Below are positions 40,736 to 64,000 of a stretch of DNA of 64,000 nt, in pieces. Position numbers and translations under genes: made by a program. The notes under the pieces were generated by a model. It was given only the letters and a program-made list of their open reading frames with translations, was not told the origin of the DNA and did not search any database. Within the stretch, counting starts at the first letter, position 1. Each line of letters starts with the position of its first letter. Source of the DNA: Blastocatellia bacterium (lineage in GTDB: Bacteria > Acidobacteriota > Blastocatellia > UBA7656); assembly GCA_035315885.1 (NCBI GenBank), contig DATFXM010000194.1, positions 172,825-236,824 of the forward strand. Direction: 5' to 3'.

Positions 40736-40751
40736 TGTACCTGCTTTACAG

Positions 40752-41090: not shown

Positions 41091-41181
41091 GAGGTAAGAA
41101 ATCGACCTTTTGTTCAGCCACCGACAGAGGTGCGAAATTAGTTAATAGTCACCTCGTCGTCAGCCAAAGGAGAAACAAAGA

Positions 41182-41265
41182 ATGGTTGCGAATGGACTCC
41201 AGGCTAAGATCGGAGTGATCTTTGATGAGGTCGGGATCGAAGAAGTAGTCGCTCCCCGTTTTTAG
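41182..41265 (+). CDS. Small ORF (27 aa) with a canonical SD. It may or may not be coding.
   Basis: aAGGAGAaacaaagaATG. Peptide MVANGLQAKIGVIFDEVGIEEVVAPRF. It is followed by the 9-bp hairpin ccgcaggcg/cgcctgcgg. Confidence 0.25.
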   Translation: MVANGLQAKIGVIFDEVGIEEVVAPRF

Positions 41266-41879: not shown

Positions 41880-42545
41880 AACTTGTTGAGTGCTGAGTGC
41901 TGAGTGCTGAGTGCTGAGTGCTGAGTGCTGAGTGCTGAGTGCTGAGTGCTGAGTGCCAAGCCCGACGGAATTGCGGAAGGGCCGATCAAACCAGGTTTCC
42001 GGACGCAACCCTTTCAGGGTTGCAGAGATTTGACCAACTTGACCCAGGGTAGCCGCAGACGGCAACCCTGGGCTGGACGACGCAACCCCTTCGGGGTTCC
42101 AGAGATTTGACCAACTTGACCCAGGGTAGCCGCGGACGGCAACCCTGGGCTGGACGACGCAACCCCTTCGGGGTTCCAGAGATTTGACCAACTTGACCCA
42201 GGGTAGCCGCAGACGGCAACCCTGGGCTGGACGACGCAACCCCTTCGGGGTTGGCGCTCAGAACTCAGCATTGATAAAGCCGGCACTCACCATTTGATAA
42301 GTTCAGCACTCAGCACTCAGCACTCAGCACTCACGCTCAGCACTCACACTCGCACTCAGCACTCAGCACTCACACTCATACTCAGCGCTCACACTCACAC
42401 TCGCACTCAGCACTCAGCACTCACGCTCAACACTCGCACTCAGCACTCACGCTCAGCACTCGCACTCAGCACTCAGCACTCAGCACTCAGAACTCAGAAC
42501 TCAGCACTCAGAACTCAGAACTCAGAACTCCCCTCCTTCCCCAGA
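41880..42545. repeat. Largest composite element in the window, ~660 bp. (gagtgct)n array, then at least three inverted-orientation ~77-bp hairpin units, then a ~250-bp (cactcag)-variant heptamer microsatellite.
   Basis: About 10 copies of gagtgct at 41886-41955. The unit (gac)ccagggtagccgc(a/g)gacggcaaccctgggctggacgacgcaaccccttcggggttccagagatttgaccaactt is repeated at least three times at 41960-42250. It is the reverse complement of the 31750 unit. Heptamers cactcag/cactcac/cgctcag/aactcag run from 42300 to 42540. Confidence 0.9.
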
Positions 42546-42580
42546 AACAAGTCTTGATCTATGCTATCCACAGTTAAAGG

Positions 42581-44006: not shown

Positions 44007-44708
44007 ATGTTCAACAAAGTGAAGGCGCGGGCGGCCACGGGATTTTGCGCCCTGACCGCCATCCTGGTTGGCACTTTGGTGTTGACGCCGCACGGAGGAT
44101 CCTTTGCCCAATCAGGCCGGAAGATCCCCAAAAAGCCACCCGGCACTCAGCAGCAGGACTCACCGCCGCCATCCGATTCAAGCAAGTCCAAAGAAGCATC
44201 GAACGACAATCAGTCAGATAACAAGAAGCCCGCGATACCGGTGGCGGTCGTCAGCAACGTGGCTTTCGTCGGAAGTTACGATCTGCAGCTTGCCGGGCTG
44301 GTTACGGATGGAATACTCTCGCGGCTCTCTGAAACCCACGCAGTGCAGGCCAGCACCGCTGGAACGAATTTGAATCGCAAGGAGGCGAGCGACCTCGCGA
44401 AGAAATCAACCGACACTTACGTCCTGTGGTTCGAGTTGCAGGCCGACGTGATCGATAGTCGGTCCAGTATAGGTGGAGTTGATCCCAGAAGCATGTATGT
44501 TGATTTCGTAGTTTTCGCGCCGGGGAGCAACAAACAGAAGACGTCCGGTCACGTGTATCAGCGCGGGCGAGGTCAGGGCGGAATTCCTGGTAATGGACCG
44601 TCGTCCACCTGGACCGTCGAATACTCGCTTCGCAACGCCGGGCGTGAGACAGCCGACCGGCTGCTGGATGCACTGGGGTTGGCATCGCTGCCCCAGATAC
44701 CTCATTAG
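44007..44708 (+). CDS. Secreted hypothetical protein with a low-complexity Ser/Asp/Lys-rich linker.
   Basis: Signal peptide/TM AATGFCALTAILVGTLVLTPHG. No recognisable domains. Confidence 0.5.
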   Translation: MFNKVKARAATGFCALTAILVGTLVLTPHGGSFAQSGRKIPKKPPGTQQQDSPPPSDSSKSKEASNDNQSDNKKPAIPVAVVSNVAFVGSYDLQLAGLVTDGILSRLSETHAVQASTAGTNLNRKEASDLAKKSTDTYVLWFELQADVIDSRSSIGGVDPRSMYVDFVVFAPGSNKQKTSGHVYQRGRGQGGIPGNGPSSTWTVEYSLRNAGRETADRLLDALGLASLPQIPH

Positions 44709-44775
44709 ATCCTCTATTGCTGAGCGCCAACCTGCAAAACAAGACAGGCCACGAGTAGTTCGGCCGGAACACCGA

Positions 44776-46320
44776 ATGAAATACGGCTTCGTAATAGACC
44801 ATCGCAAATGCATCGGATGCCACGCCTGCACCATCGCTTGCAAGTCCGAGCATCAAGTTCCGGTGGGCTCGTTCAGGACCTGGGTCAAATACATTGAAGA
44901 GGGTTCTTACCCGGACACACGTCGCCACTTCGCGGTTCTGCGTTGCAATCATTGCGAGAATGCACCCTGCGTCACCATCTGTCCGGTCAGAGCTCTGTTC
45001 AAGCGGGACAATGGAATTGTCGATTTCGACGGCGACCGCTGCATCGGCTGCAAGGCGTGTATGCAAGCCTGTCCATACGATGCGCTGTATATAAATCCAA
45101 ATACCAATACCGCCGAGAAGTGCAACTACTGCGCGCATCGCGTCGAAAATCTGATCGAGCCGGCATGCGTGATCGTTTGTCCGGTTCAGGCAATAATCTC
45201 CGGAGACCTGGACGACCCTTCATCGCACATCTCGAGGCTCGTGGCTACTGAGTCCACGCTTGTTCGGAAACCCGAAGCCAGAACAAATCCAAAGCTCTAT
45301 TACATTGAAGCAAGCGATACGGCGCTGCGGCCGGCCGAGCAATCGCACGCCGGAGGATACATCTGGTCCGAAATCCAGATGGACGCGATTGCTCGTGATG
45401 CTCAGGCGCTGGCTGCCTCCGAAGCGAAGGCCCGCACCACCTACGACGTTTCGCACGACCGGCCGTGGGGATGGAAGGTCTCGGCTTATCTCTGGACCAA
45501 GTCGATCTCGGCCGGCGCGTTTCTGCTTGCGGCGATAGCGATACTGTTCGGATACGTTCGCGGTCAGAATTGGCTGTTCAACAGCGCGGCACCTCAGGTC
45601 GCGCTGGTGTTTCTTGGTCTGACACTCTTTCTATTGATCGCGGACCTTAAGCGTCCCGAAAGGTTTCTGAGAATCCTGCTTTGGCCGCAATGGAAGTCAT
45701 GGCTTGTGGTTGGAGGGTACATACTGCTGGCCTACGGAGCGATCGCCGGCGGGTGGCTCCTGCTTCAGTGGTTTACTACCGATGCCGACCTGGACGCGGC
45801 GGTCGTCGGCGTTGGCGGAGTTGTTGCAGCGGCTGCTGCGGTGTACTCGGCATTTCTCTTTCGCCAGGCGCGGGGCCGGGTATTTTGGCACAGCCCCATC
45901 GTTGCATTTCATTTGTTTGTTCAGGCGTTGTTGGCCGGCGCGGCCGCGCTTATGGTAGTACTCGCGGTCGATTCTGCCCTCGAAGGGAATCTGCTCTTCG
46001 GCTCGAGCTATGTCTTCTTGCAATACGAACTGGCGGGAAGCCTCGTCGCTCATCTCATACTGATGACTGGCGAAGTATTCATGCCGGAAGAGAGCGCCGA
46101 ACGAAAACGAGCCGCGCGGTTGATAAGCCACGGCATATTTGCCTGGAGATTTTGGTTGGGCTGCGTGGTCATCGGCGGGTTGATTCCGTTGGCGATGGCC
46201 ATCAGAGGCTTCGAACAGATGCCCGCAGTGGCGATCCCCGCTTGTGTTGCCGCCCTCGCGGGGCTGCTGCTCTGGGAACATATCTGGGTACAGGCGGGAC
46301 AGGCGGTCCCGCTTAGCTGA
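44776..46320 (+). CDS. 4Fe-4S ferredoxin-type subunit (PsrB/NrfC/DmsB-like) fused to an ~8-TM NrfD/PsrC-like membrane anchor.
   Basis: Start at MKYGFVIDHRKCIGCHACTIAC. Four Cys clusters (CIGCHAC..C, CNHCENAPC..C, CIGCKACMQACP, CNYCAHR...C). The C-terminal ~270 aa carry about 8 hydrophobic helices. Confidence 0.75.
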   Translation: MKYGFVIDHRKCIGCHACTIACKSEHQVPVGSFRTWVKYIEEGSYPDTRRHFAVLRCNHCENAPCVTICPVRALFKRDNGIVDFDGDRCIGCKACMQACPYDALYINPNTNTAEKCNYCAHRVENLIEPACVIVCPVQAIISGDLDDPSSHISRLVATESTLVRKPEARTNPKLYYIEASDTALRPAEQSHAGGYIWSEIQMDAIARDAQALAASEAKARTTYDVSHDRPWGWKVSAYLWTKSISAGAFLLAAIAILFGYVRGQNWLFNSAAPQVALVFLGLTLFLLIADLKRPERFLRILLWPQWKSWLVVGGYILLAYGAIAGGWLLLQWFTTDADLDAAVVGVGGVVAAAAAVYSAFLFRQARGRVFWHSPIVAFHLFVQALLAGAAALMVVLAVDSALEGNLLFGSSYVFLQYELAGSLVAHLILMTGEVFMPEESAERKRAARLISHGIFAWRFWLGCVVIGGLIPLAMAIRGFEQMPAVAIPACVAALAGLLLWEHIWVQAGQAVPLS

Positions 46321-46443
46321 TTCAGAACGCAAGATTTTCTGGTTAGAGGATTCGAGTTAGAGGATTCGAGTGGACCGCATCAGCCAATATGAAGTGCGCG
46401 AGTTATACAGTGCGCCGGATAGAAAGCGGACTCACGACCAACA

Positions 46444-49272
46444 ATGTCACAAGATGAGCAACACAGAAAACTAACTCAGCTCGCGAAGGACGCTGAGGAT
46501 CGCGGAGGGCAACTGCAGAACTACCCGCCTCCTGATAAATGGGACGACTGGGTTGAGTTGGATGCGCGCGCATGGCCGCGACGAGTCGAGCGTCACTATC
46601 AACTGATCCCGACTGTGTGCTTCAACTGCGAGTCGGCTTGCGGCCTGCTGGCCTACGTGGACAAACAGACCGGAGAGATCCGCAAGTTCGAAGGCAACCC
46701 TCTCCACCCCGGGTCGCGCGGGCGCAATTGCGCCAAGGGGCCGGCGACAATCAACCAGATCGATGATCCCGAACGAATCCTGTATCCGCTGAAGCGGAAA
46801 GGTAAGCGTGGCGAAGGCGAATGGGAGCGCACAACCTGGGACGAGGTTCTGGACACTTTCTCCGCACGAATACGGAAGGCGCTGATCGATGGGCGTCGCG
46901 ACGAAGTCGTCTACCACGTCGGACGCCCGGGTCACGACGGGTACATCGATCGAGTTCTTCAGGCGTGGGGAGTTGACGGTCACAACTCTCACACGAATAT
47001 CTGCTCTTCGTCCGCGCGTCTCGGTTACGCGCTTTGGCAAGGAGCGGACCGGCCCTCGCCCGATTATTCAAACGCCAGGTTTATTCTTCTGCTCAGCTCG
47101 CACCTGGAAACGGGGCACTACTTCAATCCGCATGCTCAACGAATAATCGAAGGCAAAATGAGCGGCGCCAAAATCGCGGTGATCGATCCGCGTCTTTCGA
47201 ACACCGCCTCCTCAGCGAACTATTGGTTGTCACCGTATCCCGGCACCGAAGCTGCGTTGCTGCTTTCGATGGCCTCAGTCATCCTGAATGAGAATCTCTT
47301 CGACCGCCAGTTCGTGCGACGCTGGGTGAACTGGGAAGAATTCATGCGCTTTGAGCGGCCGCACCTCCCGTCTTCATTTGAATCTTTCATTGACGAGCTC
47401 AGGCAAGTGTATTCAAGCTTCACGCCGGAGTTTGCTGCTGAGGAATGCGGCGTGGAAGCATCCACGATTGTCGAGGTAGCGCACGAGATCGCTCGAGCGG
47501 GTTCCGCGTTTGCCTCGCACGTATGGCGCAGCGCGGCAAGCGGAAACCTCGGAGGTTGGCAGGTTGCACGCGCGTTGATGTTCCTTAACGTCCTGACTGG
47601 AAGCGTCGGAACTCGCGGGGGTGTTTGTCCTAACACGTGGAACAAATTCGTGGCGACTCCGTTTTCAAAGCCGGAGCCACAAAAAGTATGGAGTGAGCTC
47701 CTGTGGCCCCGCGAGTATCCCCTCTCGCATCACGAGCTGAGTTTCCTGCTTCCCCATTTATTGAAAGACGGGCGAGGCCATCTGTCGGCGTACTTCACTC
47801 GCGTTTACAACCCGGTTTGGACCAATCCTGATGGATTGAGTTGGATTGAGGTGTTGCGCGATGAGTCACTGATTGAGCTTCATGCAGCGCTGACGCCGGT
47901 ATGGAGCGAGACCGCGTGGTTTGCCGACTATGTCTTGCCGATGGGCCTGGGCGCTGAGCGGCATGACTTGATGAGCCAGGAGACGCACTCTGCTCAATGG
48001 ATTTCGTTTAGACAGCCGGTCAAACGAGTGGTCGCCGAGAGATCCGGCGCCCACGTGGACTACACGTATCAGGCCAACCCCGGCGAGGTTTGGGAAGAGG
48101 ACGAGTTCTGGATCGAGTTGTCGTGGAGGATCGATCCCGACGGAAGTCTCGGCGTACGCCGACATTTCGAGTCCCCGTACCGGCCCGGCGAAAAGGTGTC
48201 GATCGAAGAGTACTATCGGTGGATCTTCGAAAACAGCATACCCGGCCTGAAAGAACAGGCAGCGAGCATGGGCCAGGAGCCGCTCGACTACATGCGACGG
48301 ATCGGCTCGTTCTCGGTAAGGAAGAATGTCTACGATCTGCACGAGGCTGCGGTCTCCGAGGCACAGCTCGAAAACGCACGGATCGACGATCAAACCGGAA
48401 GGATAATCAAGCCCGGGGTGGGTGCGATGAGCGCCGTCGGCTTGATGATCGACGGAGAGCCGCGCGTCGGGTTCAACACGCCCTCGCGGAAGCTCGAGTT
48501 GTACTCCAGGACGATGGCAGAATGGAAGTGGCCTGAGCACAGCCTGCCGGGTTACATGCGCAGTCACATACACTGGAGAGACCTGGAGCGCGGCTCGGGG
48601 GAATACATTCTGGTGCCTACTTTTCGGCTACCTACGCTGATTCACACTCGCTCGGGCAACGCGAAGTGGTTGTATGAAATCTCGCATACGAATCCGTTAT
48701 GGGTTAACCCCGGTGACGCGAAGGTGCTCGGCTTCGAGAATGGGGCGCTGGTCAGAGTGAACACGGAGATCGGATACTTCGTGATTCGGGCCTGGGTGAC
48801 TGAAGGAATCAGGCCTGGCGTAGTTGCGTGTTCGCACCATCTCGGCAGGTGGCGTCTTAAGCGTGAGGAAGGCGCGGACCGCTGGGCCTCTGCCCTGGTA
48901 GATCTGGAAGAACTCGGTGAAGGCCGGTGGAAGCTGAGACGCGTTGAAGGGATCGCGCCGTTCGAAAGCGCGGACCCCGATTCGGAAAGAATCTTCTGGC
49001 GCGAAGCAGGCGTACATCAGAATCTGGCTTTCCCGGTGCATCCGGACCCGGTGAGCGGAATGCACTGCTGGCATCAGCGAGTGCGACTGGAAAGCGCGAA
49101 AGACGGCGATCAGTACGGGGACGTCGTGGTGGACACGAAGCTGTCTCGAGATGTCTATCGCAAGTGGTTGGAGATGACGCGGCCCGCTCCCGGACCCGAG
49201 GGTCTGAGGCGACCGCGATGGTTCTCACGTCCGGTCAGGCCCGCCGATGAGGTGTACGTCATGACGGTTTAG
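46444..49272 (+). CDS. Molybdopterin (bis-MGD) oxidoreductase catalytic subunit of the Psr/Phs/Ttr/Arr-like clade. No twin-arginine signal.
   Basis: N-terminal 4Fe-4S motif CFNCESACGLL...NCAKG. Its length and the PGVVACSHHLGRW region are typical of Mo-bisPGD enzymes. The N-terminus MSQDEQHRKLTQLAKD lacks an RR motif. Confidence 0.75.
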   Translation: MSQDEQHRKLTQLAKDAEDRGGQLQNYPPPDKWDDWVELDARAWPRRVERHYQLIPTVCFNCESACGLLAYVDKQTGEIRKFEGNPLHPGSRGRNCAKGPATINQIDDPERILYPLKRKGKRGEGEWERTTWDEVLDTFSARIRKALIDGRRDEVVYHVGRPGHDGYIDRVLQAWGVDGHNSHTNICSSSARLGYALWQGADRPSPDYSNARFILLLSSHLETGHYFNPHAQRIIEGKMSGAKIAVIDPRLSNTASSANYWLSPYPGTEAALLLSMASVILNENLFDRQFVRRWVNWEEFMRFERPHLPSSFESFIDELRQVYSSFTPEFAAEECGVEASTIVEVAHEIARAGSAFASHVWRSAASGNLGGWQVARALMFLNVLTGSVGTRGGVCPNTWNKFVATPFSKPEPQKVWSELLWPREYPLSHHELSFLLPHLLKDGRGHLSAYFTRVYNPVWTNPDGLSWIEVLRDESLIELHAALTPVWSETAWFADYVLPMGLGAERHDLMSQETHSAQWISFRQPVKRVVAERSGAHVDYTYQANPGEVWEEDEFWIELSWRIDPDGSLGVRRHFESPYRPGEKVSIEEYYRWIFENSIPGLKEQAASMGQEPLDYMRRIGSFSVRKNVYDLHEAAVSEAQLENARIDDQTGRIIKPGVGAMSAVGLMIDGEPRVGFNTPSRKLELYSRTMAEWKWPEHSLPGYMRSHIHWRDLERGSGEYILVPTFRLPTLIHTRSGNAKWLYEISHTNPLWVNPGDAKVLGFENGALVRVNTEIGYFVIRAWVTEGIRPGVVACSHHLGRWRLKREEGADRWASALVDLEELGEGRWKLRRVEGIAPFESADPDSERIFWREAGVHQNLAFPVHPDPVSGMHCWHQRVRLESAKDGDQYGDVVVDTKLSRDVYRKWLEMTRPAPGPEGLRRPRWFSRPVRPADEVYVMTV

Positions 49273-53015: not shown

Positions 53016-54080
53016 TCAACCTCGAAGCGACGACAGCGCTTCTCCAGTCAATGCCACGCAAGCCGAGGTTTTCAAGTTCAACAACAGTAAGAACTCACCC
53101 AGGCCCGCGGCTACAGTACCGGCTGCGACCGCCCGCTCGCCTTCCCTGCGCGGCGCGCTTAAGACCGAAAGCGCATCTGCCGGCAAGAAGACTTCGTCTC
53201 CAGCCTGAATCACCCAGCGTCCGGATTCTTCGGCGGTAAGCACCGTTTCGATCTGACCGCGGCGAAAAATGACCGCATTCAATTTCGCGAGTTCTCCTCT
53301 CAGAACGGCGGCCCACTTAGCCGCCTCTCGCGCATTGAACGCCACGCGTCGATCGGACATCACGAACTCGATGCCTTCGGTTGAGGACCTGATCACAATG
53401 CTCGATTCAGGTAGCGCTGTTTCGGATCGTTCTACTTGTCGTGACTCGACAAATTGTTCAAGGCAGGATGCCACCTTGAAGCAAAACGCCAGCGGAAGCT
53501 CCAATCCTTTAACCTGAATCCGGGGAGCTCTGCGCCGTACAGTTTCGGAAGGCGATTCAAGCTTCGTCCTTCGCGAGTCGAGTTCCTGCAAGTGGTCGGG
53601 GCCAAGCAGCACCCAGCGCGCGTTTCGCTGATCGCTCAACAGAAGCTGACCTTCCGATGCCGAGGCTATGAGCCAATCGGGCAATGAGCATCGGGTATTC
53701 GCGGCGTCCGCGCCCGACTGCATGCGCAGCAGGCATTCAATGTCGGGCGCATCGAGCCAAATCTCGCTCTGAGGAAATGACAGCAGCAGGCCGATCGCGG
53801 TGTTGGCCATCACAATCTCTGCTGATGAACGTCGGACTTCGAACTGTTCCAGTCGCAGTCGCACCGTAGCCCAGAAGTGACGCGCTTCGAGGGCTCCGAG
53901 TTTCACTTCGCGATCCTGGTGCCGGATTATCAGCGCTCCATCGGCGCGAATGGTAAGCCCGCTACCTCCCTGCCTGATGACTTCCGGAGTCGATTTTCCG
54001 TCTTCGATGAACTGCGACAAGGAAGAGTAAAGATAGGGAGCGAAGGCCAGACTGCAACGTATGGATAAAAGATTCAACAT
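53016..54080 (-). CDS. Hypothetical protein.
   Basis: Long ORF with coding-like composition. No motifs recognised. Confidence 0.45.
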   Translation of the reverse strand: MLNLLSIRCSLAFAPYLYSSLSQFIEDGKSTPEVIRQGGSGLTIRADGALIIRHQDREVKLGALEARHFWATVRLRLEQFEVRRSSAEIVMANTAIGLLLSFPQSEIWLDAPDIECLLRMQSGADAANTRCSLPDWLIASASEGQLLLSDQRNARWVLLGPDHLQELDSRRTKLESPSETVRRRAPRIQVKGLELPLAFCFKVASCLEQFVESRQVERSETALPESSIVIRSSTEGIEFVMSDRRVAFNAREAAKWAAVLRGELAKLNAVIFRRGQIETVLTAEESGRWVIQAGDEVFLPADALSVLSAPRREGERAVAAGTVAAGLGEFLLLLNLKTSACVALTGEALSSLRG

Positions 54081-54178
54081 CGTTTTTCTCTCGGTGCGCT
54101 ACTGTTAGCGTAGCACGCACGAGGCCGGTCCTTCTATCAACATTGCTAAGCGCGATGTAATTCGGTAGAAATCAATCT

Positions 54179-54487
54179 ATGTCAGAGAAGCGCGCGAGGC
54201 CGAGTGATGCGATTCGCAGAGTATTGAGCGGCAGTTTGCTTGCCGCAGAGGGAGACAAGCTTGCGAACGGGTTGCAGGAGCGAAGCGTTCATTTGGGTCC
54301 CGACGGGTATGTTTATCAGTTGGCCACGAGTGAAAGGCGAGGTGTTCTGGAGACTTCGATAGTCGGCAAGCGCGCTGTCGGCGAGTACCTCAGATGGGTT
54401 GACGGACTGTTCCGGCCGGGCGAACTGCCAGGCGAAGAGAACGGCATTCATTTCCGCGCAGCACGAAAGCTGCGCGAACTAATCTGA
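54179..54487 (+). CDS. Hypothetical small protein.
   Basis: ORF only. Confidence 0.3.
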   Translation: MSEKRARPSDAIRRVLSGSLLAAEGDKLANGLQERSVHLGPDGYVYQLATSERRGVLETSIVGKRAVGEYLRWVDGLFRPGELPGEENGIHFRAARKLRELI

Positions 54488-54518
54488 ACGCAGACATACG
54501 AGGACGAAGGCAGATTCG

Positions 54519-54944
54519 ATGAGTGATTTGCTATTCAGGAAGCCGAGTGTGGGTAAGGAAATTTTGTCTCATTGCGGCCGCTGCAAGGACGAGCGGACGC
54601 ACATTGTGACCGCGATGGACGGCGATGTTGTTCGTCGGGTCACCTGCTCGACGTGCGGCAGCACGCACAATTACCGGCCGCCGGCGACGAAGCGGCCGGT
54701 AAGAAGCGGAGCCGGCCGTACCCGCAGCGAAGGGGGAACTCAAAAGCAGGCCTTTCGGATTGATCCGAGCCGCCCGGTGAGAGACTACGACATGCACGCA
54801 AACTTCAGTGAAGGAGAGGTGATCAGTCACCCGAAGTTCGGACTGGGTGAAGTTCAGACCTCTCTTGCGCCTAACAAGATCGAAGTACGCTTCACTGAAG
54901 GCACACGGTTACTGCTGCACAACATGAAAAGTGCTGAGTACTGA
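54519..54944 (+). CDS. Zinc-ribbon protein with a C-terminal beta-rich domain.
   Basis: CGRCKDERTH...CSTCGSTHNY four-Cys ribbon. C-terminal KFGLGEV...IEVRFTEG. Confidence 0.5.
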   Translation: MSDLLFRKPSVGKEILSHCGRCKDERTHIVTAMDGDVVRRVTCSTCGSTHNYRPPATKRPVRSGAGRTRSEGGTQKQAFRIDPSRPVRDYDMHANFSEGEVISHPKFGLGEVQTSLAPNKIEVRFTEGTRLLLHNMKSAEY

Positions 54945-55098
54945 GTGCCGAGTGCCGAGTTGTGAATGATCAGCTCGGGCCGCGGAGACGCCGCGGCCTG
55001 CGCAGCGACAGTTGAGGCGCTCAGAGTTTCACTGAGGCACAGTTGAACTGGCCACGCGAGAACTTGCAAGAGCTGTGGTGCGCTTCTAGAACCGGCCT

Positions 55099-55338
55099 TT
55101 ACTTGAAGAAGCTGGCGTTCTTCTGGATGAAGTGACGCCATTTGTCTGGGACGTAGGCTTCCACAAAGATCGCAGAAACGGGACAGGCAGGGCGGCACGC
55201 GTCGCAGTTAGTGCAGGCGGCCGGATCGATGTACATCTGTGGTTCTCCCGGCCCCCCTTGAATGCAGTCTTCCGGACACACATCGACGCAATACAGCTCT
55301 TTTGCGCCTATGCACGGCTCACAGATAACGTAGGCCAA
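55099..55338 (-). CDS. Ferredoxin (Azotobacter-type 7Fe/8Fe 2x[Fe-S] class).
   Basis: CIGAKELYCVDVCPEDCI and CTNCDACRPACP. Confidence 0.8.
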   Translation of the reverse strand: MAYVICEPCIGAKELYCVDVCPEDCIQGGPGEPQMYIDPAACTNCDACRPACPVSAIFVEAYVPDKWRHFIQKNASFFK

Positions 55339-55356
55339 GCTAACTCCAAAATGAGT

Positions 55357-55614
55357 CTATTTGTAGTGGTCGGCATTAATCTGGGTAAAGTGCTTCCACT
55401 GCTCTGGCAAGTCGTCTTCGGTAAAGATCGCCTGCACCGGACAGGCCGGCTCACACGCGCCACAATCGATGCACTCATCCGGGTGTATGTATAACAGCTC
55501 CGAAGTTTCGAAATCCGGCTCATCCTTCCGCGGGTGAATGCAATCTACCGGGCAGACGTCCACGCAAGCCGTGTCCTTCGTCCCGATACACGGTTCTGCT
55601 ATAACGTAGGTCAT
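55357..55614 (-). CDS. Ferredoxin (second tandem copy).
   Basis: [18 protein letters not shown] and [12 protein letters not shown]. Confidence 0.8.
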
Positions 55615-55724
55615 CTAGCACTCCTTTCGTGATTTCTCGAAGCAAGGCATTAACAACTATAGAATGATTCCTCAGCCAGCCGATACAAATTTGCTCAATT
55701 TTTTTTAAAGAGTCAATCCCAAAC

Positions 55725-55995
55725 TTTTAGTAAGCGAACTGGCGAAGGGACGAATCGGCGACGCGGAGACGAGAGACGAAGTGACGCGGAGAGGAGGGAC
55801 GGGGTGAGGAGGGATGCGGTGACGCGGTGAGGAGAGACGCCGTGACGTGACGCGTCCGTTGGTCGCCCCTTCGCACTTTCGCCCATTGCCCCTTCTCTCC
55901 CCGTCCGTCCCTCCTCTCCGCGTCTCCGCGTCTCTCCTCTCCGAGTCGCCCTTCTCCCCTTCTCCCTTCGCCCATTCGCTCCCCGTCCGTAGTCG
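55725..55995. repeat. Oligopurine/oligopyrimidine imperfect palindrome.
   Basis: gacgcggagacgagagacgaagtgacgcggagaggagggacggggtgaggaggg ... ccttctctccccgtccgtccctcctctccgcgtctccgcgtctctcctctcc. Confidence 0.8.
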
Positions 55996-55998
55996 CGT

Positions 55999-56652
55999 TC
56001 AGTCATGCTTGGGCTCGAAGGTGACATGAGGAATCATCGTGGCCTTTTCCTTCATCGTTACACGACCGGCCAGCTTCTTCTGCACGCGCTCGGCCGGCAC
56101 AAATGCTACCTTGCTGTCTACAAGCTGCTGGTTGGGCCGATAACCGAGCCCAAACTCAGGCAGCTCCGGCCGATTCGTCAGGCGCTTCAGGTCCCAGATC
56201 GTTTCGTTCCTGCTGTACGCGCAAATCTCTGTCTCGCGGCTCATGATGATCGCCTCTTCCGGACAGGCGTCTACACAGAACCCACAAAAGACACAGCGCA
56301 ACATGTCGATTTCAAATCGAGCTGGGTACTTCTCGATCTGCGGATCAGGATGCTCTGCAGGCTCGATGTAGATACAATCGGCAGGGCACGCAGTAGCACA
56401 CATATAACAGGCCACGCACCGCGGCGTCCCATCTTCCCTCGTTGTCAGAATGTGAGCGCCCCGATAGCGATCTGAGTAAGCGCGGCGCTCCTCCGGATAC
56501 CGGATCGTGGCGTCAACTTTGCCCGTCAGATTGTCGATCATCCGCGTCATCGTGAGCCCCATTCCCGAGAGCGGAGCAAGTACTTCCTTCGCGATCGACG
56601 ACTCTGCAGCCGTCCGGTCCGCAACGTTTATGACCTTCGGAGTCTTCTTCAT
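55999..56652 (-). CDS. nuoI: NADH-quinone oxidoreductase subunit I.
   Basis: Two 4Fe-4S motifs, CVACYMCATACP and CVFCGFCVDACP. Confidence 0.85.
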   Translation of the reverse strand: MKKTPKVINVADRTAAESSIAKEVLAPLSGMGLTMTRMIDNLTGKVDATIRYPEERRAYSDRYRGAHILTTREDGTPRCVACYMCATACPADCIYIEPAEHPDPQIEKYPARFEIDMLRCVFCGFCVDACPEEAIIMSRETEICAYSRNETIWDLKRLTNRPELPEFGLGYRPNQQLVDSKVAFVPAERVQKKLAGRVTMKEKATMIPHVTFEPKHD

Positions 56653-56655
56653 AAC

Positions 56656-58266
56656 TCAACCATTTGCCAGCACACCCGGAATGCGGGTCTGCTCGATAGT
56701 AATACCCTTGAGGGCGGGCTCGGTGAGGGACATCTCCTGGAACACTTCCTCTACCGACATCCACGGAGCATTCTCGCCCGATGCATGAAGCAACATCGCA
56801 AAAACCTCCCAGGCCGGCAGCGCATCGGCTGGCGGATCAATCGCCCGACCCGCCCACTGAACTCGCCCCTGGAAGTTTGTATAAGTGCCATCCTCCTCGG
56901 ACCACACCGCGAGCGGCAGAACAATATCTGCTCGACTCTGCCATTCGGCCTTATGTGCGGCCATCACTACCGAGTATTCGAGTGACTCAAGAAGCTCTGC
57001 AAGCTTTGCTTCAGCGGCCTCATCGCCTTCTCTTCGAACCAGCGGCTCGAGGTAACTTATTATTCCGGTCTTGACCTTACCCGACTTTGCTGCCTGAATA
57101 GCTCCGTCGATCGAGCCCAGCCCGTTTCCAAAACCCAGCTTGAGTGCGCCAGATGTATTCGGGTGTTTATCAATTCGCCTGAGAATCTGGTCTTCGCGTT
57201 GGGTCACCGCGACATCCTCGTTACCAAACCGAAATTCGATGCTGGTTGTGCCAAGCCCGCCAAGATACTTCTTAAACAGATAAAGCGCCTCGTTGGTCAA
57301 ACAGGAAGAGGCGAAGCCCAACACCGAATTGCCGCCGCCGTTCGATTGAGCTGACGCAATTCTGGACACCACTGCCCGCGCCGCATCTTCCCAGGTCACC
57401 GGAGCCTGTAGGCCATCACCACCCTTCATCAAAGGCCGGGCGATTCGATCTTGTTTGGCGATCTCGTGAAAGCTGAGACGGCCTTCGTCGCAAAGCCAAC
57501 TGCTGTTGACCTCTGTGTTGCGTCTGGGAAGCAGCCTGAAAATTGTTCCGTCGCGATGATCGATGCGGACGTTGCAAGCCGTTGAACACCCTGCGCAGAT
57601 CGAGTCGGTGCTGTTCAGGAACCAGACTCGGCACTTGAACCTGAAGTCGCGCGACGTCAAAGCACCTACCGGACAGATATCAACCACGTTTCCTGAATAG
57701 GGGTTCTCGAGAGGCCGGTCTTCGAACGTGCCGATCGCCACGTGATCGCCTCGATTGAAGAACTGCATCTCGCCCGTTCCGGTTATGTGGTTGCAGAACC
57801 TTATGCACCTGGAGCAGAGTACGCAGCGCTCCTGATCGAGCACGACCATCGGGCCAAGATCCACGGCTTTTCGTTTGTGGACCTTCAACTCTAGCGGGAT
57901 CTCGCTCGTATGAAGCCCGTAAACCATGTAGTAGTCCTGCAAGCGGCACTCGCCGGCCTGATCGCACACCGGACAATCCACTGGATGGTTTATGAGCAGG
58001 AACTCCAGAACACCTCGCACTGCCTGCTTGACCCTCTCGTTCTCCGAGCGCACAACCATGCCTTCGCTGACCACCGTGGTGCAGGAGGGCGTCAGCTTTG
58101 GCATCTTCTCGACCTCAACCAGACACATGCGACAGTTGCCATCGATCGGAAGGTCCGGGTGATAGCAGTAGTGCGGGATCTCGACTCCGTGGTCTGCCGC
58201 GGCCTGAATTATTGTCTGGCCCGGCCTGGCTTCGATCTCTTGGTCGTTTAAGGTGAACTTTGGCAT
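56656..58266 (-). CDS. nuoG: NADH-quinone oxidoreductase subunit G (short form).
   Basis: 2Fe-2S N-terminus (HYCYHPDLPIDGNCRMCLVEV). HPVDCPVCDQAGECRLQD. CVLCSRCIRFC. Confidence 0.85.
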   Translation of the reverse strand: MPKFTLNDQEIEARPGQTIIQAAADHGVEIPHYCYHPDLPIDGNCRMCLVEVEKMPKLTPSCTTVVSEGMVVRSENERVKQAVRGVLEFLLINHPVDCPVCDQAGECRLQDYYMVYGLHTSEIPLELKVHKRKAVDLGPMVVLDQERCVLCSRCIRFCNHITGTGEMQFFNRGDHVAIGTFEDRPLENPYSGNVVDICPVGALTSRDFRFKCRVWFLNSTDSICAGCSTACNVRIDHRDGTIFRLLPRRNTEVNSSWLCDEGRLSFHEIAKQDRIARPLMKGGDGLQAPVTWEDAARAVVSRIASAQSNGGGNSVLGFASSCLTNEALYLFKKYLGGLGTTSIEFRFGNEDVAVTQREDQILRRIDKHPNTSGALKLGFGNGLGSIDGAIQAAKSGKVKTGIISYLEPLVRREGDEAAEAKLAELLESLEYSVVMAAHKAEWQSRADIVLPLAVWSEEDGTYTNFQGRVQWAGRAIDPPADALPAWEVFAMLLHASGENAPWMSVEEVFQEMSLTEPALKGITIEQTRIPGVLANG

Positions 58267-58269
58267 TTT

Positions 58270-58400
58270 CTTTAGTTCTGAGTGCTGAGTGCTGAGTTGT
58301 TGGTACTGAGTTCCTGATTCTCAATACTGAGTTTTGGTCATGTGATCCTCGGATTTGAGGAGCTTTATCTCAAGAAACAACTCAGCATTCAGCACTTCAA
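58270..58400. repeat. Partial palindromic heptamer element (ctgagtg/cactcag type) inside the nuo operon, between nuoG and nuoF.
   Basis: agttctgagtgctgagtgctgagttgttggtactgagtt ... aactcagcattcagcacttc. Confidence 0.7.
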
Positions 58401-59644
58401 TTACAGCAGGCTTCAAATTCGTGCCTGAATTTTGTCAGAAAACTCCTGATAGGCATTACATCCGCATCGGCGAGCGGGCAAATCGTCTTACCCTCCATGT
58501 TGTCCACCACCTTCAACAGCAGGTCGATATCCGATCGCTTGCCTTCGCCCGCTACCATCCTCCTAAGAAGCTTCGCCGCCCAGCCCGTTCCCTCGCGGCA
58601 TGGAGTGCACTGTCCGCAGGACTCATGCGCATAAAAGTCTGCAATAACCGACAGCGCAGCGGGCATGCTCACCGTTTCGTCGAACACGATCATTCCACCC
58701 GAACCGAGCATTGAGCCCGCCTTCATCAACGACTCGTAATCCAGCAAAACGCCTTCACACTCGGCGGCAGTCAACACAGGGACAGATGACCCGCCCGGTA
58801 TTACTGCTTTCAGCTTACGGCCGTCCTTTATCCCTCCGGCCTCGTTGTTGATGAAATCCATGAGCGGATACCCCATATCGACTTCGTAGACTCCAGGCTT
58901 GGCTACGTGGCCGGACACCGAAAAAAGTTTTGTACCCTTGCTCTTCTCGGTTCCTATCGCCGCGTAGGCCGCCCCGCCGTGCTCAATGATCCACGGCACC
59001 GCACAGAGCGTCTCGACGTTGTTGACCACGGTCGGTGATGCAAGGAAGCCGCTCGTAGCGGGAAACGGAGGCTTGATTCTCGGATACCCGCGATACCCCT
59101 CGAGCGATTCAATCAGCGAAGTCTCTTCGCCGCAAATGTACGCACCTGCCCCCATATGCAGATGGATATCCAAGGCGAAGTCTCGGCCCATCACTGAAGG
59201 GCCCAGAATGCCGGCTTTGTACGCTTCGTCAAGCGCGGTCTCGATCACCTCCTCGAGAAAACCGAACTCACCCCTCATATAGATGTATGAGAGATGGCAC
59301 TCCAGCGCGAGACTCGCGATTGCCATGCCCTCTATCAACAAGTGAGGGTCGCGCTCAAGCAGTAGCCGGTCCTTGAATGTCCCGGGCTCGCTCTCATCTG
59401 CATTGCACAACAGGTACGTAGGCTTGCCGCTGTTGCGTGGAACAAAGCTCCATTTCATGCCGGTCGGGAACCCCGCCCCGCCACGCCCGCGCAGCCCGCT
59501 AGTCTTAACCTCTTCAACGAGGGTGGCCGGCTGCATCCCCAGCGCCTTTTCGAGGACCTTGTACCCGTTGCGCTCGCGATATGTCTGGATGGACTTCTGG
59601 CCCGGCTTGTCGGTGTTCGCCAGCAGGATTTTATTCATTGGCAA
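58397..59644 (-). CDS. nuoF: NADH-quinone oxidoreductase subunit F.
   Basis: GLRGRGGAGFPTGMKW, an FMN/NADH site, and ESCGQCTPCREG. Confidence 0.9.
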   Translation of the reverse strand: MPMNKILLANTDKPGQKSIQTYRERNGYKVLEKALGMQPATLVEEVKTSGLRGRGGAGFPTGMKWSFVPRNSGKPTYLLCNADESEPGTFKDRLLLERDPHLLIEGMAIASLALECHLSYIYMRGEFGFLEEVIETALDEAYKAGILGPSVMGRDFALDIHLHMGAGAYICGEETSLIESLEGYRGYPRIKPPFPATSGFLASPTVVNNVETLCAVPWIIEHGGAAYAAIGTEKSKGTKLFSVSGHVAKPGVYEVDMGYPLMDFINNEAGGIKDGRKLKAVIPGGSSVPVLTAAECEGVLLDYESLMKAGSMLGSGGMIVFDETVSMPAALSVIADFYAHESCGQCTPCREGTGWAAKLLRRMVAGEGKRSDIDLLLKVVDNMEGKTICPLADADVMPIRSFLTKFRHEFEACCN

Positions 59645-60107
59645 GCTTCTCGATTGTTTCTCGCACGCGCTCGGGGCTTAGGTTTTCAAAATAGCGATCC
59701 CCAACCTGCATCACCGGAGCGGTGTCGCACGACGCAAGACATTCGGTGAAATCCCAACTGAACTTCCCATCAGGTGTTATCTGACTGCGATCAACCCCGA
59801 GCTTCTCCTTGATCACGTCGGCGCATGGATACGTACCCATGAGCCAGCAACTCACGTTGCGGCAAAGCTCCAGGTGGTACTTACCAACCGGCTTCTTTCG
59901 AAGAAGCGTGTAAAAAGTTGCGACGCTCAAGACATCAGCGGGAGGATAGCCCATCAGACCGCCGACGTATTCGGCGACCTCCTGCGAAATCCACCCAAAC
60001 TCGCGCTGAGCAAGAGCGAGCACCGGTACTAGAGCTGCCCGCTTCTCAGGATAGTGAGAGAGAATCCTCTCGTAGCTGCGTTGCGCCTCTTCGCTAAACT
60101 GAATCAT
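59631..60107 (-). CDS. nuoE: NADH-quinone oxidoreductase subunit E.
   Basis: [10 protein letters not shown]...CLASCDTAP 2Fe-2S thioredoxin-like motif. Confidence 0.85.
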
Positions 60108-62419
60108 CGATCGAGCTCTCCAGCGATGATGTTGTAACTACCTAGTGCGGCAATGGCATCGGCAACCAGTGATCCCTCAATCATCTTCGGATACGCCGAG
60201 AAGAGCGAGAAGCACGGGCCGCGTGCGTGCACACGCCAGGGCTGCATCGATCCATCGCTGATGATGTAGTAGCCCAACTCGCCGTTTGCACCCTCGGTGT
60301 ATCCATACACTTCACCCGGAGGAGGTTGTATTCCATGCATCGTGAGCTTGAAATGGTTCATCAAGTCTTCGATGTTGGTATACACGCCTTTTTTTGGCGG
60401 CAGGGTGATACGCCGGTCATCGACCTGAAATGGGCCCTCCGGCAGATTCTCGAGCGCCTGCTCTACTATTCGCACGCTCTGCCGCATCTCTTCCATCCTT
60501 ACCAGGTAACGGTCGTAGACGTCTCCCCGGTTTCCAATAGGCACTTCAAAATCGAAGTCATCGTAGCTCGAGTAAGGATGCACCTGACGGATGTCGTAGG
60601 GCACACCCGTCGCTCGCAACATTGGACCCGTAAACCCCCAGTCGATTGCGTCGGTCTTGTTTATCTCCGTAACTCCGACTGCACGTTGTTTGAACAGACG
60701 GCTGTGCGTGTTCAAACGGTCCAGATCGTCAATGTACTTCGGCAGCCGCTTTAAAACCTCCCGACAGCGCGGGACAAAGTCGGCAGGCAGCTCCGAGGCA
60801 AGTCCGCCAACTCGCACGTAGCTGACCATCATCCGCACGCCGGCTGTCATCTCCAGCAGATCGTAGATCTCTTCTCTCGGCTCGAACGAGTACCAGAAGT
60901 TGGTTATCGCGCCCAGGTCCACCAGATTTGCGCCAATGCACACCATGTGGTCCATGATGCGGGACAGCTCGCCCAGCAATACCCGGATGTATTGCACTCG
61001 TTTTGGTACTTCGATCCCAAGAAGCTTCTCGACGGCACACGCATACCCGACGTTGTTCAAGAACGACGAACAGTAGTTCAAACGATCGGTGTACGGTATT
61101 ACCTGATTCCACTGGTGGGTCTCGGCCATCTTTTCAAAACAGCGATGCAGGTAACCTATCTCCACATCGGCATCGACTATTTTTTCGCCGTCCAGACGAC
61201 AGACGATTCGCAGAGTTCCGTGAGTAGCCGGATGCGATGGGCCCACATTGACGATCGTCGGCTCAGGGCTCAGCCGGTCCTGCTCGTGACCCTCCCACTG
61301 AGTCCGGTACTCGATCGGCAGCTTGTAATCACGAGATAGCGGCGTTCGCGCTCCCGCTTCGTGATCCTTCCTGAGTGCGTATCCAACGAATTCCTCGTGG
61401 CAAAGAATGCGGCGAAGGTCGGGGTGATTCCGGAATCGAACGCCGAACATGTCATATGTTTCGCGTTCCCACCAATTCGCCGTCTTCCAGATTGAGCTGA
61501 CCGAATCTATCTCGGGCGCCGACTCCGCCAGGGGCACCTTCAGCCTCAGCCGGTGCCCGTGATCTATCGAGTACATTTGGTAGACGACGTTGAATCGCTC
61601 CTCGCGGGTCGTATTCGGATAGCCCAGATAGTCTGCACCGGTGATCGAGCTCAGCAGATCGAATTTCGTTGACGAATCAGCTTTAAGAGTACGGCAGATC
61701 TCCACGACCTGGTCGGGTCTGACGGTGACCGCAAGATCCCCACGAAAGTCGTTCACGTCCAGAACCTGATCCTTGAATCTATCCTGAATCAAGGCCGCGA
61801 TGGGATTCTGCGGCGCCGCGGGCTCTCGGGTTATATGAACCAGTCTGACTGCCTCGTGGGCCTGCTGTTCGGCGATCAGCAGCGTTTTGGGAGAACTTTC
61901 GGTGATTTCTTTTTTCATCCGCTCGCGCAGCTCGGCGCGGGCATCGGCATCAACGAAGCGCTCTTTTTGAATGATCTCTCTGATCATCAGGACCGCTTGA
62001 AGTACGGCTTCGGGCGAAGGAGGACAGCCGGGAATGTAGACGTCTACCGGGATCAACTCGTCGATGCCCTGCATCACGTGATAGGCGCGGTAGAAGCCGC
62101 CCGAGGTTGCGCACGCGCCCATCGAGATCACCCACTTCGGATCAGGCATCTGATCGTAGATCTTCTTGAGCACCGGACCCATTTTGTCGGTGATGGTGCC
62201 CATGACCATGAGCAAATCGGACTGGCGAGGGCTGAAGCGGACGACTTCGGCGCCGAAACGTGCGAGGTCGTAGTGGGCAGAGACCACGGACATGAACTCA
62301 ATTGCGCAGCAAGCGGTGCCGAAGGGCATGGGCCACAGCGAGTTCTTCCGCCCCCAGTTTGCCATTTCGCTTACTTTGGTTGTCAGGAAACTCTCGCCAA
62401 CTGTGGAGGCAGAACTCAT
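60104..62419 (-). CDS. nuoBCD: Fused NADH-quinone oxidoreductase subunits B-C-D in one 771-aa polypeptide.
   Basis: NuoB part: [11 protein letters not shown]...GACATSGG...IPGCPP. NuoC part: [26 protein letters not shown]. NuoD part: [18 protein letters not shown]...C-terminal [13 protein letters not shown]. The frame is continuous. Confidence 0.85.
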
Positions 62420-62499
62420 GTTGTCCCTCGATTGTTTTTGCGTAGTCCGCTCAGAAGTTGATCCTATTTGTCCGCGGTTCGAATTAAATCTTATCTCTG

Positions 62500-62830
62500 G
62501 GTATGGAGCCCGTCAAACATGGCGGTATTTTTTGGGGTGAGGAGATAAGGCGAATTGGCGAAGGGGCGGTGGCGTGATGCGGAGACGGGGAGAGGAGGGA
62601 CGGGGGAAGGAGGGAATGGGCGAAGGGGCGACCCGCACGGTTCAGCTGACACGGTTGCCCATTCTCTCTTCGCCCATTCGCGCCTTCGCCCATTCGCCCA
62701 TTCCCTCCTCTCCGCTCCCTCCTCCCCGCGTCCCCGCGTCGCCCCTTCGCTTCTCTTCCGCTCCGCTTGTGTCCTTCTCTACGCTACTGCATACTCGCTT
62801 CAGCATCTTCAATACGGCCCCTGGAGAAAA
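62500..62830. repeat. Oligopurine/oligopyrimidine imperfect palindrome.
   Basis: ggcgaaggggcggtggcgtgatgcggagacggggagaggagggacgggggaaggaggg ... cccattccctcctctccgctccctcctccccgcgtccccgcgtcgccccttcgc. Confidence 0.8.
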
Positions 62831-62834
62831 TGAC

Positions 62835-63323
62835 ATGCGGATATTCGGAAAGAATCTCTCAGACTACATTGCAGTGCAGAAGGGAATGCTTCTTCTGATC
62901 GCGCTTGTCGCGCTCGGGCGGCTAGCGCTCTCTCTGGCAGGAGTGTCAAATTCCGCTGCGAAGTGGCTCAGCGTCACCGCAGTGATGGCTCTCGGAGCAG
63001 TCTACGCCGGGATCAAAGTCAACAGCAGCGGCTTTGGCGGCTTCAGACACTTGCTCCCGATGGTGTTCTTCCAGGATGTCCTTGCCCAGCTTGTCGTTGC
63101 CGGCGGCATCGCCCTGGCAATCGTTACTCAAAAGGACAACATCTTCAGCGCGCCTGAGTACTCAGGAAACCGCGACGGCAAGACCTGGTCACATTCGGTC
63201 GCTCACCTTGTGCTCGGATTTATCGTAGCGCCGCTTGTGTCCTGGGGAATCTCTTCGTTGGTTCTGTTGCTTGCGCGCAAGACTTCGCCCGGCAAGCGCG
63301 ACGCCGAAGCCGCAAGCGCGTAG
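62835..63323 (+). CDS. Small integral membrane protein (4 TM), hypothetical.
   Basis: Start set at ATG 62835 (MRIFGKNLSDYIAVQKGMLLLIALVALG). The track's upstream extension is repeat-derived. Confidence 0.5.
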   Translation: MRIFGKNLSDYIAVQKGMLLLIALVALGRLALSLAGVSNSAAKWLSVTAVMALGAVYAGIKVNSSGFGGFRHLLPMVFFQDVLAQLVVAGGIALAIVTQKDNIFSAPEYSGNRDGKTWSHSVAHLVLGFIVAPLVSWGISSLVLLLARKTSPGKRDAEAASA

Positions 63324-63324
63324 A

Positions 63325-63545
63325 GTACGCGGAGGAAGGGGAGATGAAGAGATGAGGAGATGAAGAGATGAGGAGATGAGGAGATGAGGAGATGAGGGGA
63401 TGATGCGAAGGGGCGAAGGGGCGAGAAAAGTCAACGGTCTTCCGGATAGTATGTCTCCGCGTCACCGTGTCTCTCCTCCCCGCGTCCGTATCTCCCCTTC
63501 GCCCTTTCGCATATCTCGCTTCCCTGCCTCGTAGTACTTCCGGCC
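63325..63545. repeat. (gaggagat)n array plus pyrimidine-rich partner. It overlaps the 3' end of rarA.
   Basis: gagatgaagagatgaggagatgaagagatgaggagatgaggagatgaggagatgagggg ... gtctctcctccccgcgtccgtatctccccttcgccc. Confidence 0.7.
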
Positions 63546-64000
63546 GCGCAAATTCTCAGGCAGACAGTCCATCTCCTCCGCCCTGCCTGACTCAAATTCA
63601 TGGGCGTATTGATATCCCTGACCGTAGCCCAGCCGCTTCATTAACGAAGTCGATGCGTTACGTAGGTGCAATGGGACGGGCTCGCGCTCAGTTTCCAACG
63701 CATCCTTTTGCGCCGCCCCGTAGGCCTCCAGCACCGAGTTCGATTTTGGCGCGAGCGCCAGATAGAGTGTCGCCTGGGTCAAGGCAAGCTTCGCCTCCGG
63801 CAAGCCTATGAAATGAGTGGCCTGCATCGCCGCAACTGCCTCGACCAGCGCCATCGGGTCGGCCAGTCCGATATCTTCCGAAGCATGGTGAATGAGCCGA
63901 CGAGCCACATACATCGGGTCCTCTCCTGCTTCCAGCATCCGAGCAAGCCAGTAAACCGCCGCATCGGGATCTGAGTTGCGGATCGACTTGATGAACGCGG
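63462..64000 (-). CDS. rarA: Replication-associated recombination protein A (AAA+), C-terminal part. The gene runs off the window's 3' edge.
   Basis: Reading upstream of the track's Met gives ...[34 protein letters not shown], the conserved MgsA C-terminal domain. The final ~20 aa ([13 protein letters not shown]) are encoded by the repeat element. Confidence 0.8.

Follow-up and report, generated by a model that had tools for sequence, protein, structure and literature searches.

A peripheral-arm nuo operon without membrane subunits in a Blastocatellia bacterium, and its probable membrane-arm complement

A nuo operon confined to the hydrophilic subunits

The DNA analyzed here is a single 64-kb stretch of a Blastocatellia bacterium genome (assembly GCA_035315885.1, contig DATFXM010000194.1, positions 172,825 to 236,824), referred to as the window, whose genes were called from a listing of open reading frames (ORFs) together with Pfam and NCBIfam profile searches. 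On its minus strand lies a cluster of genes for the respiratory NADH:quinone oxidoreductase, complex I, in the order nuoBCD, nuoE, nuoF, a 130-nt hairpin spacer, nuoG, nuoI, a 384-nt spacer and two ferredoxin genes (Table 1); the gene calls and coordinates of a first-pass annotation of this region agree to the base with the ORF listing and the profile searches. The overlaps of nuoE with nuoBCD and of nuoF with nuoE, the narrow gap between nuoG and nuoI and a candidate promoter 5' of nuoBCD, which is the sole promoter-like site returned by a consensus search of positions 54800-63000, would fit a single transcription unit.

The cluster contains every hydrophilic core subunit and no membrane subunit. 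Searches with tblastn using NuoA, NuoH, NuoJ, NuoK, NuoL, NuoM and NuoN queries from a Blastocatellia metagenome-assembled genome (MAG) and from four other phyla gave no match in the window at E<=0.01, and Pfam scans of about 40 other window ORFs revealed no membrane subunit either. The first-pass annotation had described nuoA as absent upstream of nuoBCD, nuoH as missing between nuoG and nuoI, and nuoJ-N as not present, and all three statements hold. The 415 bp 5' of nuoBCD consist of an A/T-rich stretch with the sigma-70-like site followed by a 250-nt palindrome, beyond which lies a divergent gene, and the 3-nt spacer between nuoG and nuoI leaves no room for nuoH.

Table 1. Features of the nuo region, with profile scores and cut-offs in bits
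Feature	Coordinates	Strand	Product	Description	Profiles or solved relatives	Score	Cut-off
nuoBCD	60104..62419	minus	771 aa	One ORF comprising NuoB (N2 cluster), NuoC and NuoD (quinone site); first operon gene	Oxidored_q6 PF01058, Complex1_30kDa PF00329, Complex1_49kDa PF00346		
NuoB part of nuoBCD					TIGR01957	221.9	142.7
NuoC part of nuoBCD					TIGR01961	129.7	122.45
NuoD part of nuoBCD					TIGR01962	507.7	459.35
nuoE	59631..60107	minus	158 aa	2Fe-2S N1a subunit; 4-nt overlap with nuoBCD	PF01257, TIGR01958	154.2 (TIGR01958)	142.4
nuoF	58397..59644	minus	415 aa	Flavin mononucleotide (FMN)/NADH site and N3 cluster; 14-nt overlap with nuoE	PF01512, PF10589, SLBB, TIGR01959 equivalog	590.3 (TIGR01959)	558.65
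nuoG, short form	56656..58266	minus	536 aa	2Fe-2S and 4Fe-4S domains and a reduced molybdopterin-like domain	PF13510, PF10588, PF22117, PF22151, PF00384		
nuoI	55999..56652	minus	217 aa	Two 4Fe-4S clusters; begins 3 nt past nuoG	TIGR01971	117.8	113.05
Ferredoxin 1	55357..55614	minus	85 aa	7Fe, FdxA type	NF045480 FdxA; M. smegmatis FdxA 2v2k, 7-Fe ferredoxin 1bc6	107.6	125
Ferredoxin 2	55099..55338	minus	79 aa	7Fe type; 18 nt past ferredoxin 1	NCBIfam equivalog; best solved relative 1bc6, E 1.3e-26	80.1	125
Sigma-70-like -35/-10 pair	62488..62516	minus		TTGACG, 17-nt spacer, TAAGAT; 69 nt 5' of nuoBCD start; consensus match only			
Divergent membrane-protein gene	62835-63323	plus	162 aa	Beyond the 415 bp upstream of nuoBCD			
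nuoF-nuoG palindrome	58267..58396			Arms of GAGTGCT heptamers; inverted repeat 58281-58301 / 58376-58396, 95% complementary			
nuoI-ferredoxin palindrome	55715..55998			Large, imperfect, of 8-nt units (CGGAGACG and similar); arms 55757-55802 / 55905-55950, 89% complementary			
Palindrome upstream of nuoBCD	62545..62790			GGCGAAGG-type octamers, between nuoBCD promoter region and divergent gene; sits where nuoA lies in other phyla			

Cofactor and quinone-site motifs

Curated NCBIfam cut-offs are passed by six of the seven Nuo subunits (Table 1), NuoG being the exception, and the best solved relatives are complex I chains (E. coli NuoCD, 7awt; Thermus Nqo4 and Nqo6, 2fug). Three residues of Thermus thermophilus Nqo4, His38, Tyr87 and Asp139, hold the quinone head group; the NuoD part aligns with Nqo4 (2fug_4) free of gaps at 388 bits and has H, Y and D at these positions. 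Reading of the translations shows that the tandem-Cys N2 motif of the NuoB part is intact, including IPGCPP, as are the GRGGAGFPTG FMN/NADH glycine loop and the CxxCxxC N3 cysteines of NuoF; the 2Fe-2S cysteines of NuoE are kept, and NuoI has the TIRYPEE motif and the double CxxCxxCxxxCP pattern of TYKY-type subunits. The quinone pocket is thus conserved, and as it is only half built without NuoH, its conservation argues for a normal membrane partner. The presence of NuoE, NuoF and NuoG points to NADH as the electron donor. Models for HoxE, HoxU and Fdh score far below their cut-offs, and no hydrogenase or formate-dehydrogenase catalytic gene lies in or adjoining the cluster. Ferredoxin-dependent complexes of the 11-subunit type are marked by the absence of NuoE, NuoF and NuoG, all three of which are intact here in the same operon.

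The layout is a stable property of the lineage

Among the matches listed from one-genome-per-species contigs, the best for NuoBCD come from six Blastocatellia MAGs at 81-85% identity. The wider family comprises about 60 protein clusters at 76-87% identity, in which all labelled members are Blastocatellia (orthologues at 81-87% identity are found in the class), after which identity drops to <=60%. The order BCD-E-F-G-I is identical in six MAG loci (L001-L004, L008 and L049), with no nuoA ahead and no nuoH between G and I. It is found also in L172, L174 and L175, and in L081 and L170 the first genes seen are BCD-E-F. Ten or more independent assemblies, which stem from different studies and include contigs of 360 kb and 534 kb, show a layout with the same boundaries, and this layout is a stable property of the lineage, not an artefact.

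A complementary membrane-arm operon

In order to locate the membrane subunits, a NuoH alignment was scanned against metagenome contigs, and the nuo genes on the 80 loci so obtained were ordered by tblastn. Many of these 80 loci carry nuoJ directly after nuoH and are without B, C and D, and L147 (GC content 55.7%) reads nuoA-nuoH-nuoJ. With the L147 NuoH as query, all organism-named homologues belong to Blastocatellia or Acidobacteriota, and the five that were located on contigs all lie in a nuoA-H-J-K-L-M-N operon that has none of the seven peripheral-arm genes (B, C, D, E, F, G, I) nearby. The NuoH of L074 (labelled Acidiferrales), used as the first query, had returned only Dormibacterota- and Chloroflexota-type proteins, with no Blastocatellia among the 120 matches listed; the NuoH proteins available from other phyla share only 40-50% identity, so that no query of that kind would have brought the target into those 120 matches.

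Both operons occur under one accession of the European Nucleotide Archive, ERZ25039533, with the nuoBCD-E-F... operon of L008 on contig_27039 and nuoAHJKLMN on contig_10533 (contigs of 360 and 285 kb). L008 is the MAG MFD04944.bin.1.11 (CAVXWP01), and its nuoBCD operon is 81% identical to that of the window. The ERZ numbers of three Blastocatellia MAGs differ by no more than about 100, as would be expected if each MAG had its own accession, and on this ground we take ERZ25039533 to be one MAG holding both operons on different contigs.

We note a conserved ORF of 178-183 aa immediately 3' of nuoN in all of the Blastocatellia membrane-arm operons examined (L163, 17136-17672; L166, 12373-12924; L167, 15498-16049; L168, 12284-12835). 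Pfam at E<=1 assigns no family to the 183-aa ORF, and the protein might be an extra, lineage-specific subunit or an assembly factor.

A probable single enzyme from two operons

Taken together, the complex I gene set of Blastocatellia is very probably split by arm into two operons that jointly specify one canonical proton-pumping NADH:quinone oxidoreductase. The cluster in the window would supply the complete peripheral arm, with NuoE, NuoF and NuoG as the NADH-oxidizing module and NuoB, NuoC and NuoD plus NuoI as the quinone-reducing module, and nuoA-H-J-K-L-M-N would lie elsewhere in the genome, so that the cut falls at the hydrophilic/hydrophobic boundary. From the sequences we infer that the products of both operons assemble into one active, L-shaped enzyme. 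NADH would be oxidized at the FMN of NuoF, and electrons would travel via the chain of Fe-S clusters carried by NuoE, NuoG and NuoI until they reach N2, the cluster of the NuoB part; quinone would be reduced at the His/Tyr site of the NuoD part, in a pocket closed by NuoH, and its reduction would drive proton pumping by NuoL, NuoM and NuoN. A membrane arm encoded elsewhere was one of two readings offered by the first-pass annotation, and it is supported by the separate operon in Blastocatellia and by the accession that holds both.

Several observations weigh against this explanation. The membrane-arm operon of the window's own genome is not within the 64 kb, and in several relatives that operon adjoins mutL, but it is missing from the window's mutL region (28141-30225); the mutL side of the window is syntenic with L165, but its 179-aa ORF and LPG-synthase gene differ from those flanking the membrane operon elsewhere. 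The same-genome link rests on a single assembly accession and depends on binning, in which errors are possible. Tetranucleotide comparison of two stretches of 17-22 kb from ERZ25039533 gave r = 0.81, where other pairs reached values as high as 0.92, and shared k-mers likewise did not single out the pair. A second same-MAG link was not found: P0261, P0266, P0250, P0254 and P0279 all led to other assemblies, and P0250 (BCD) and P0213 (NuoH) share a Joint Genome Institute metagenome while belonging to different NCBI MAGs. NuoG scores 449.3 bits with TIGR01973, slightly under the equivalog cut-off of 470.05, with the full NuoG Pfam domain set nonetheless present.

In a different arrangement, the cluster would be a second, alternative peripheral arm in a genome that also has a complete (or 11-subunit) nuo operon, such that the membrane arm would be competed for or shared and two isozymes would result. 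Many Acidobacteria have several nuo clusters (bioRxiv 10.1101/197269), clusters for the quinone-reducing module alone (BCD-I, B/CD-G-I) occur in Thermoanaerobaculia and Eisenbacteria, and another Eisenbacteria MAG, L079, has an A-B-C-D-E-F-G-H-J-K-L-M cluster that is complete but for nuoI. We nevertheless regard such isozymes as unlikely, as the Blastocatellia membrane operons lack, in five of five cases, the B, C, D and I that nuoBCD-E-F-G-I supplies exactly, the named Blastocatellia NuoH matches are of one sequence type, and, as weak evidence, no second NuoD locus from the six Blastocatellia assemblies appears among the 80 best loci listed from the one-genome-per-species contigs.

A module operating independently of any complex I membrane arm is very improbable, whether as a soluble NADH dehydrogenase, as an NADH:ferredoxin oxidoreductase acting with the adjacent 7Fe ferredoxins, or by docking onto another membrane complex, which was the other reading of the first-pass annotation. 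The lack of any membrane subunit within 64 kb, the two downstream ferredoxin genes in the same orientation, and, in Thermoanaerobaculia, a BCD-I cluster (L013) with 2-oxoacid:ferredoxin oxidoreductase genes (alpha and beta) after it could all be cited in its favor. Yet the conserved quinone His/Tyr/Asp residues and N2 motif are sensible only with NuoH closing the pocket, NuoE, NuoF and NuoG are present, both the class and one assembly accession contain the matching A-H-J-K-L-M-N operon, and the genes next to the cluster include no hydrogenase, no formate dehydrogenase and no other catalytic partner. Nor are the ferredoxins constant neighbors: the gap that separates them from nuoI is 384 bp in the window, in L001, L003, L008 and L174 the intervening gene is fumarase/aspartase-like (470-476 aa), and in L001 the stretch of about 5.7 kb downstream of the operon contains no ferredoxin. 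That the membrane genes are missing through an assembly or binning artefact, or through a recent rearrangement private to this genome, is barely credible; the window is a single sequence and the exact NuoBCD protein is found only on two short soil-metagenome contigs, but the recurrence of the same order and boundaries in independent assemblies and on long contigs already contradicts it.

Relationship to other split complex I gene sets

Complex I (NDH-1) of Thermus thermophilus (Nqo1-14) and E. coli (NuoA-N) has the same seven hydrophilic core subunits with the same cofactor and quinone-site motifs, from which the window differs in that B, C and D form one polypeptide, NuoG is short (536 aa), and NuoI has N- and C-terminal extensions (217 aa). 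In contrast to a single nuoA-N operon, the genes of the two arms are in separate operons in Blastocatellia. In animals, ND1, 2, 3, 4, 4L, 5 and 6 (equivalent to NuoH, N, A, M, K, L and J) are encoded in one genome and the homologues of NuoB, C, D, E, F, G and I in the other; this mitochondrial and nuclear partition is identical to that of Blastocatellia, where it lies between two operons of one bacterial chromosome set and involves no import or dual translation.

Split complex I gene sets or BCD fusions are documented (PMC12361115, PMC3362086, PMC4453560), and most clades mix split and single-cluster forms (PMC12361115). Ignavibacterium album has its 14 nuo genes across three clusters (PMC3362086), and Desulfurobacterium thermolithotrophum has nuoABCDHIJKLMN plus nuoEFG (PMC12724263). 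In these organisms, too, one complex I comes from several loci, whereas the Blastocatellia cut is exactly at the arm boundary, with nuoA and nuoH gone from their usual places. Eleven-subunit enzymes without NuoEFG (cyanobacterial NDH-1 and those of green sulfur bacteria and Desulfitobacterium), for which ferredoxin is the proposed donor (PMC11238625, PMC3362086), have homologous genes for the quinone-reducing module, but the cluster described here has NuoE, NuoF and NuoG with intact NADH/FMN motifs and needs no ferredoxin donor. A fused NuoBCD has been reported as a complete complex I variant in Thermodesulfobacteriota (PMC12361115). The window protein has the same triple-fusion architecture as the fusion equivalog NF009808 (PRK13292) but scores 770.2 bits, below its cut-off of 1156, which indicates a separate lineage of fusion. 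No described nuo layout of Blastocatellia or Chloracidobacterium was found in the literature, and the supplements of PMC12361115 are without Blastocatellia entries.

The nearest relatives of NuoBCD are in Blastocatellia, followed by Eisenbacteria and Thermoanaerobaculia. Thermoanaerobaculia L013 (1-5937) and L014 (579-3169) have BCD-I clusters and Eisenbacteria L010 (8690-13535) has B/CD-G-I, with B and I parts 55-75% identical to those of the window. Other metagenome loci read A-E-F-G-H-J-K-L-M (L110, L136), A-E-H-J-K-L-M (L102, L119) or F-H-J-K-L (L101), and Poribacteria are likewise without nuoI between H and J. We note that the clusters of L102, L119, L110, L136, L101, L084 and L087 are without B, C, D and I, retain A together with E or E-F-G in front of H-J-K-L-M, and are the complements expected for clusters of the BCD-I type. 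A neighbor-joining tree of NuoH, drawn without support values, groups L084, L087, L088, L089, L095, L101, L102 and L119 with Blastocatellia and places L110 and L136 among the loci elsewhere. The differing gene sets of all these clusters show that the cut point between the two loci moved during evolution, and Blastocatellia represent the state in which it coincides with the arm boundary.

The downstream ferredoxin genes

Two 7Fe-type ferredoxins had been proposed to flank the operon, and this assignment is borne out by the translations, which both have Cx7Cx3CP (ligands of the 3Fe-4S cluster and one of the 4Fe-4S ligands) followed by CxxCxxCxxxCP, and by solved 7Fe relatives from M. smegmatis (2v2k), Bacillus schlegelii (1bc6), Thermus (1h98) and Azotobacter (FdI), although both proteins score below the NCBIfam equivalog cut-off. 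FdxA-type 7Fe proteins are general electron carriers. Orthologues of both lie 3' of the operon in L003, L004, L008 and L049, those of ferredoxin 2 being 75-78% identical. Ferredoxin 1 probably has its own promoter. The two are adjacent genes of housekeeping type, not subunits or conserved members of the operon, and nothing ties them to complex I. Farther downstream, at 53016-54944, are three conserved hypothetical genes (354 aa on the minus strand; 102 and 141 aa on the plus strand) that are syntenic in L003, L004, L008 and L049 and for which Pfam at E<=1 returned nothing.

Intergenic palindromes

The hairpin that the first-pass annotation placed inside the operon between nuoF and nuoG, suggesting that it could partition mRNA stability, is real, with a minimum free energy (MFE) of its RNA of -45 kcal/mol (z = -5.5 against shuffles), but is not special to the cluster. 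Palindromes of the same design, in which tandem units of 7 or 8 nt with a common orientation are followed by a spacer and then by complementary units, occupy no fewer than 12 further intergenic sites in the window, in addition to long arrays at 41887-42530. Of the three in the nuo region (Table 1), the one between nuoI and the ferredoxins is the largest (positions 55715-56000 folded: MFE -165 kcal/mol, z = -8.5), followed by the one upstream of nuoBCD (62540-62800 folded: MFE -145 kcal/mol, z = -7.8). The nuoF-nuoG palindrome has no U-tract on the minus strand and is not called as a terminator, and scans of the window with Rfam at gathering thresholds and for tRNAs gave no matches.

In orthologous operons, palindromes with other unit sequences are found at the BCD-E junction (L001, L002, L049), between F and G (L001, L002, L008) and between G and I (L049). 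The F-G spacer ranges from 25 to 671 bp and differs in sequence, and L003, with 25 bp, has no palindromes. Since their position is not conserved, the palindromes are not a built-in feature of the operon, and the nuoF-nuoG hairpin is best regarded as a single copy of an intergenic repeat, mobile or expanding, whose presence the operon tolerates. Repetitive extragenic palindromic (REP) elements of enterobacteria and the short tandemly repeated repetitive (STRR) heptamers of heterocystous cyanobacteria are intergenic repeats that form strong hairpins, many per genome. The window repeats resemble these in being extragenic, palindromic, present in many copies and variable between close relatives; they are made of 7-8-nt units, tandem and inverted and only intergenic, and their unit sequences differ (GAGTGCT, GGTTTAG, GGCAGTA, GGCGAAGG and others). 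The three nuo palindromes belong to this genome-wide class of intergenic repeats, and by analogy with REP elements they may stabilize or punctuate the transcript.

Insertions of 670 bp are seen in two nuo operons, E-F and F-G (L049, 1345-2014; L004, 14143-14813), where small ORFs, one of them PIN-domain toxin-like by eye, appear instead of palindromes. Elsewhere in the window, a gene-poor stretch of 2.1 kb (40443-42580) contains 76-77-nt tandem repeats (40469-40675 and 42002-252) with two internal hairpins each and no Rfam match, and a third set of such repeats lies at 31751-31921 (region 31704-31947). Inverted heptamer arrays flank these 76-77-nt repeats, with TGAGTGC x10 at 41887-41956 and TCAGCAC x34 at 42303-42530.

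Other genes of the window

Two further gene groups of the window are of note. At 44593-49272 on the plus strand, a 575-aa protein in which a 4Fe-4S dicluster domain (Fer4_11) is fused to an NrfD-type membrane domain is followed by a 942-aa molybdopterin oxidoreductase, a pair that by its domains looks like a Psr/Nrf-like quinone-linked enzyme with fused B and C subunits. At 12321-15947 on the minus strand, about 40 kb from the nuo operon, the genes for electron transfer flavoprotein (ETF):quinone oxidoreductase, ETF alpha and ETF beta stand in a row, a second electron route into the quinone pool. An ORF at 63462-63938 was considered as a truncated MgsA and rejected because it runs off the end of the window.

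Implications

Is the arm-wise split functional and not neutral? Separate operons could let Blastocatellia and their BCD-I and BCD-G-I relatives control or swap the peripheral modules attached to a single membrane arm, for example by mounting pre-made arms on demand, with the variable hairpins setting subunit ratios by differential mRNA decay and the 178-183-aa ORF acting as a lineage-specific subunit or assembly factor; we consider this scenario improbable.

The enzyme is an ordinary complex I with a neat gene layout, not a new kind of enzyme, and a genome fragment whose nuo genes are limited to the peripheral arm is no sign of an enzyme that is soluble or coupled to ferredoxin. For the annotation of Acidobacteriota MAGs it follows that nuoBCD-E-F-G-I should be paired with nuoA-H-J-K-L-M-N, as complex I will otherwise be scored incomplete. 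More broadly, the Blastocatellia operons illustrate cleanly how gene order can evolve along the line of a structural boundary, and the succession of events could be reconstructed with the help of the intermediate cut points found in sister lineages.

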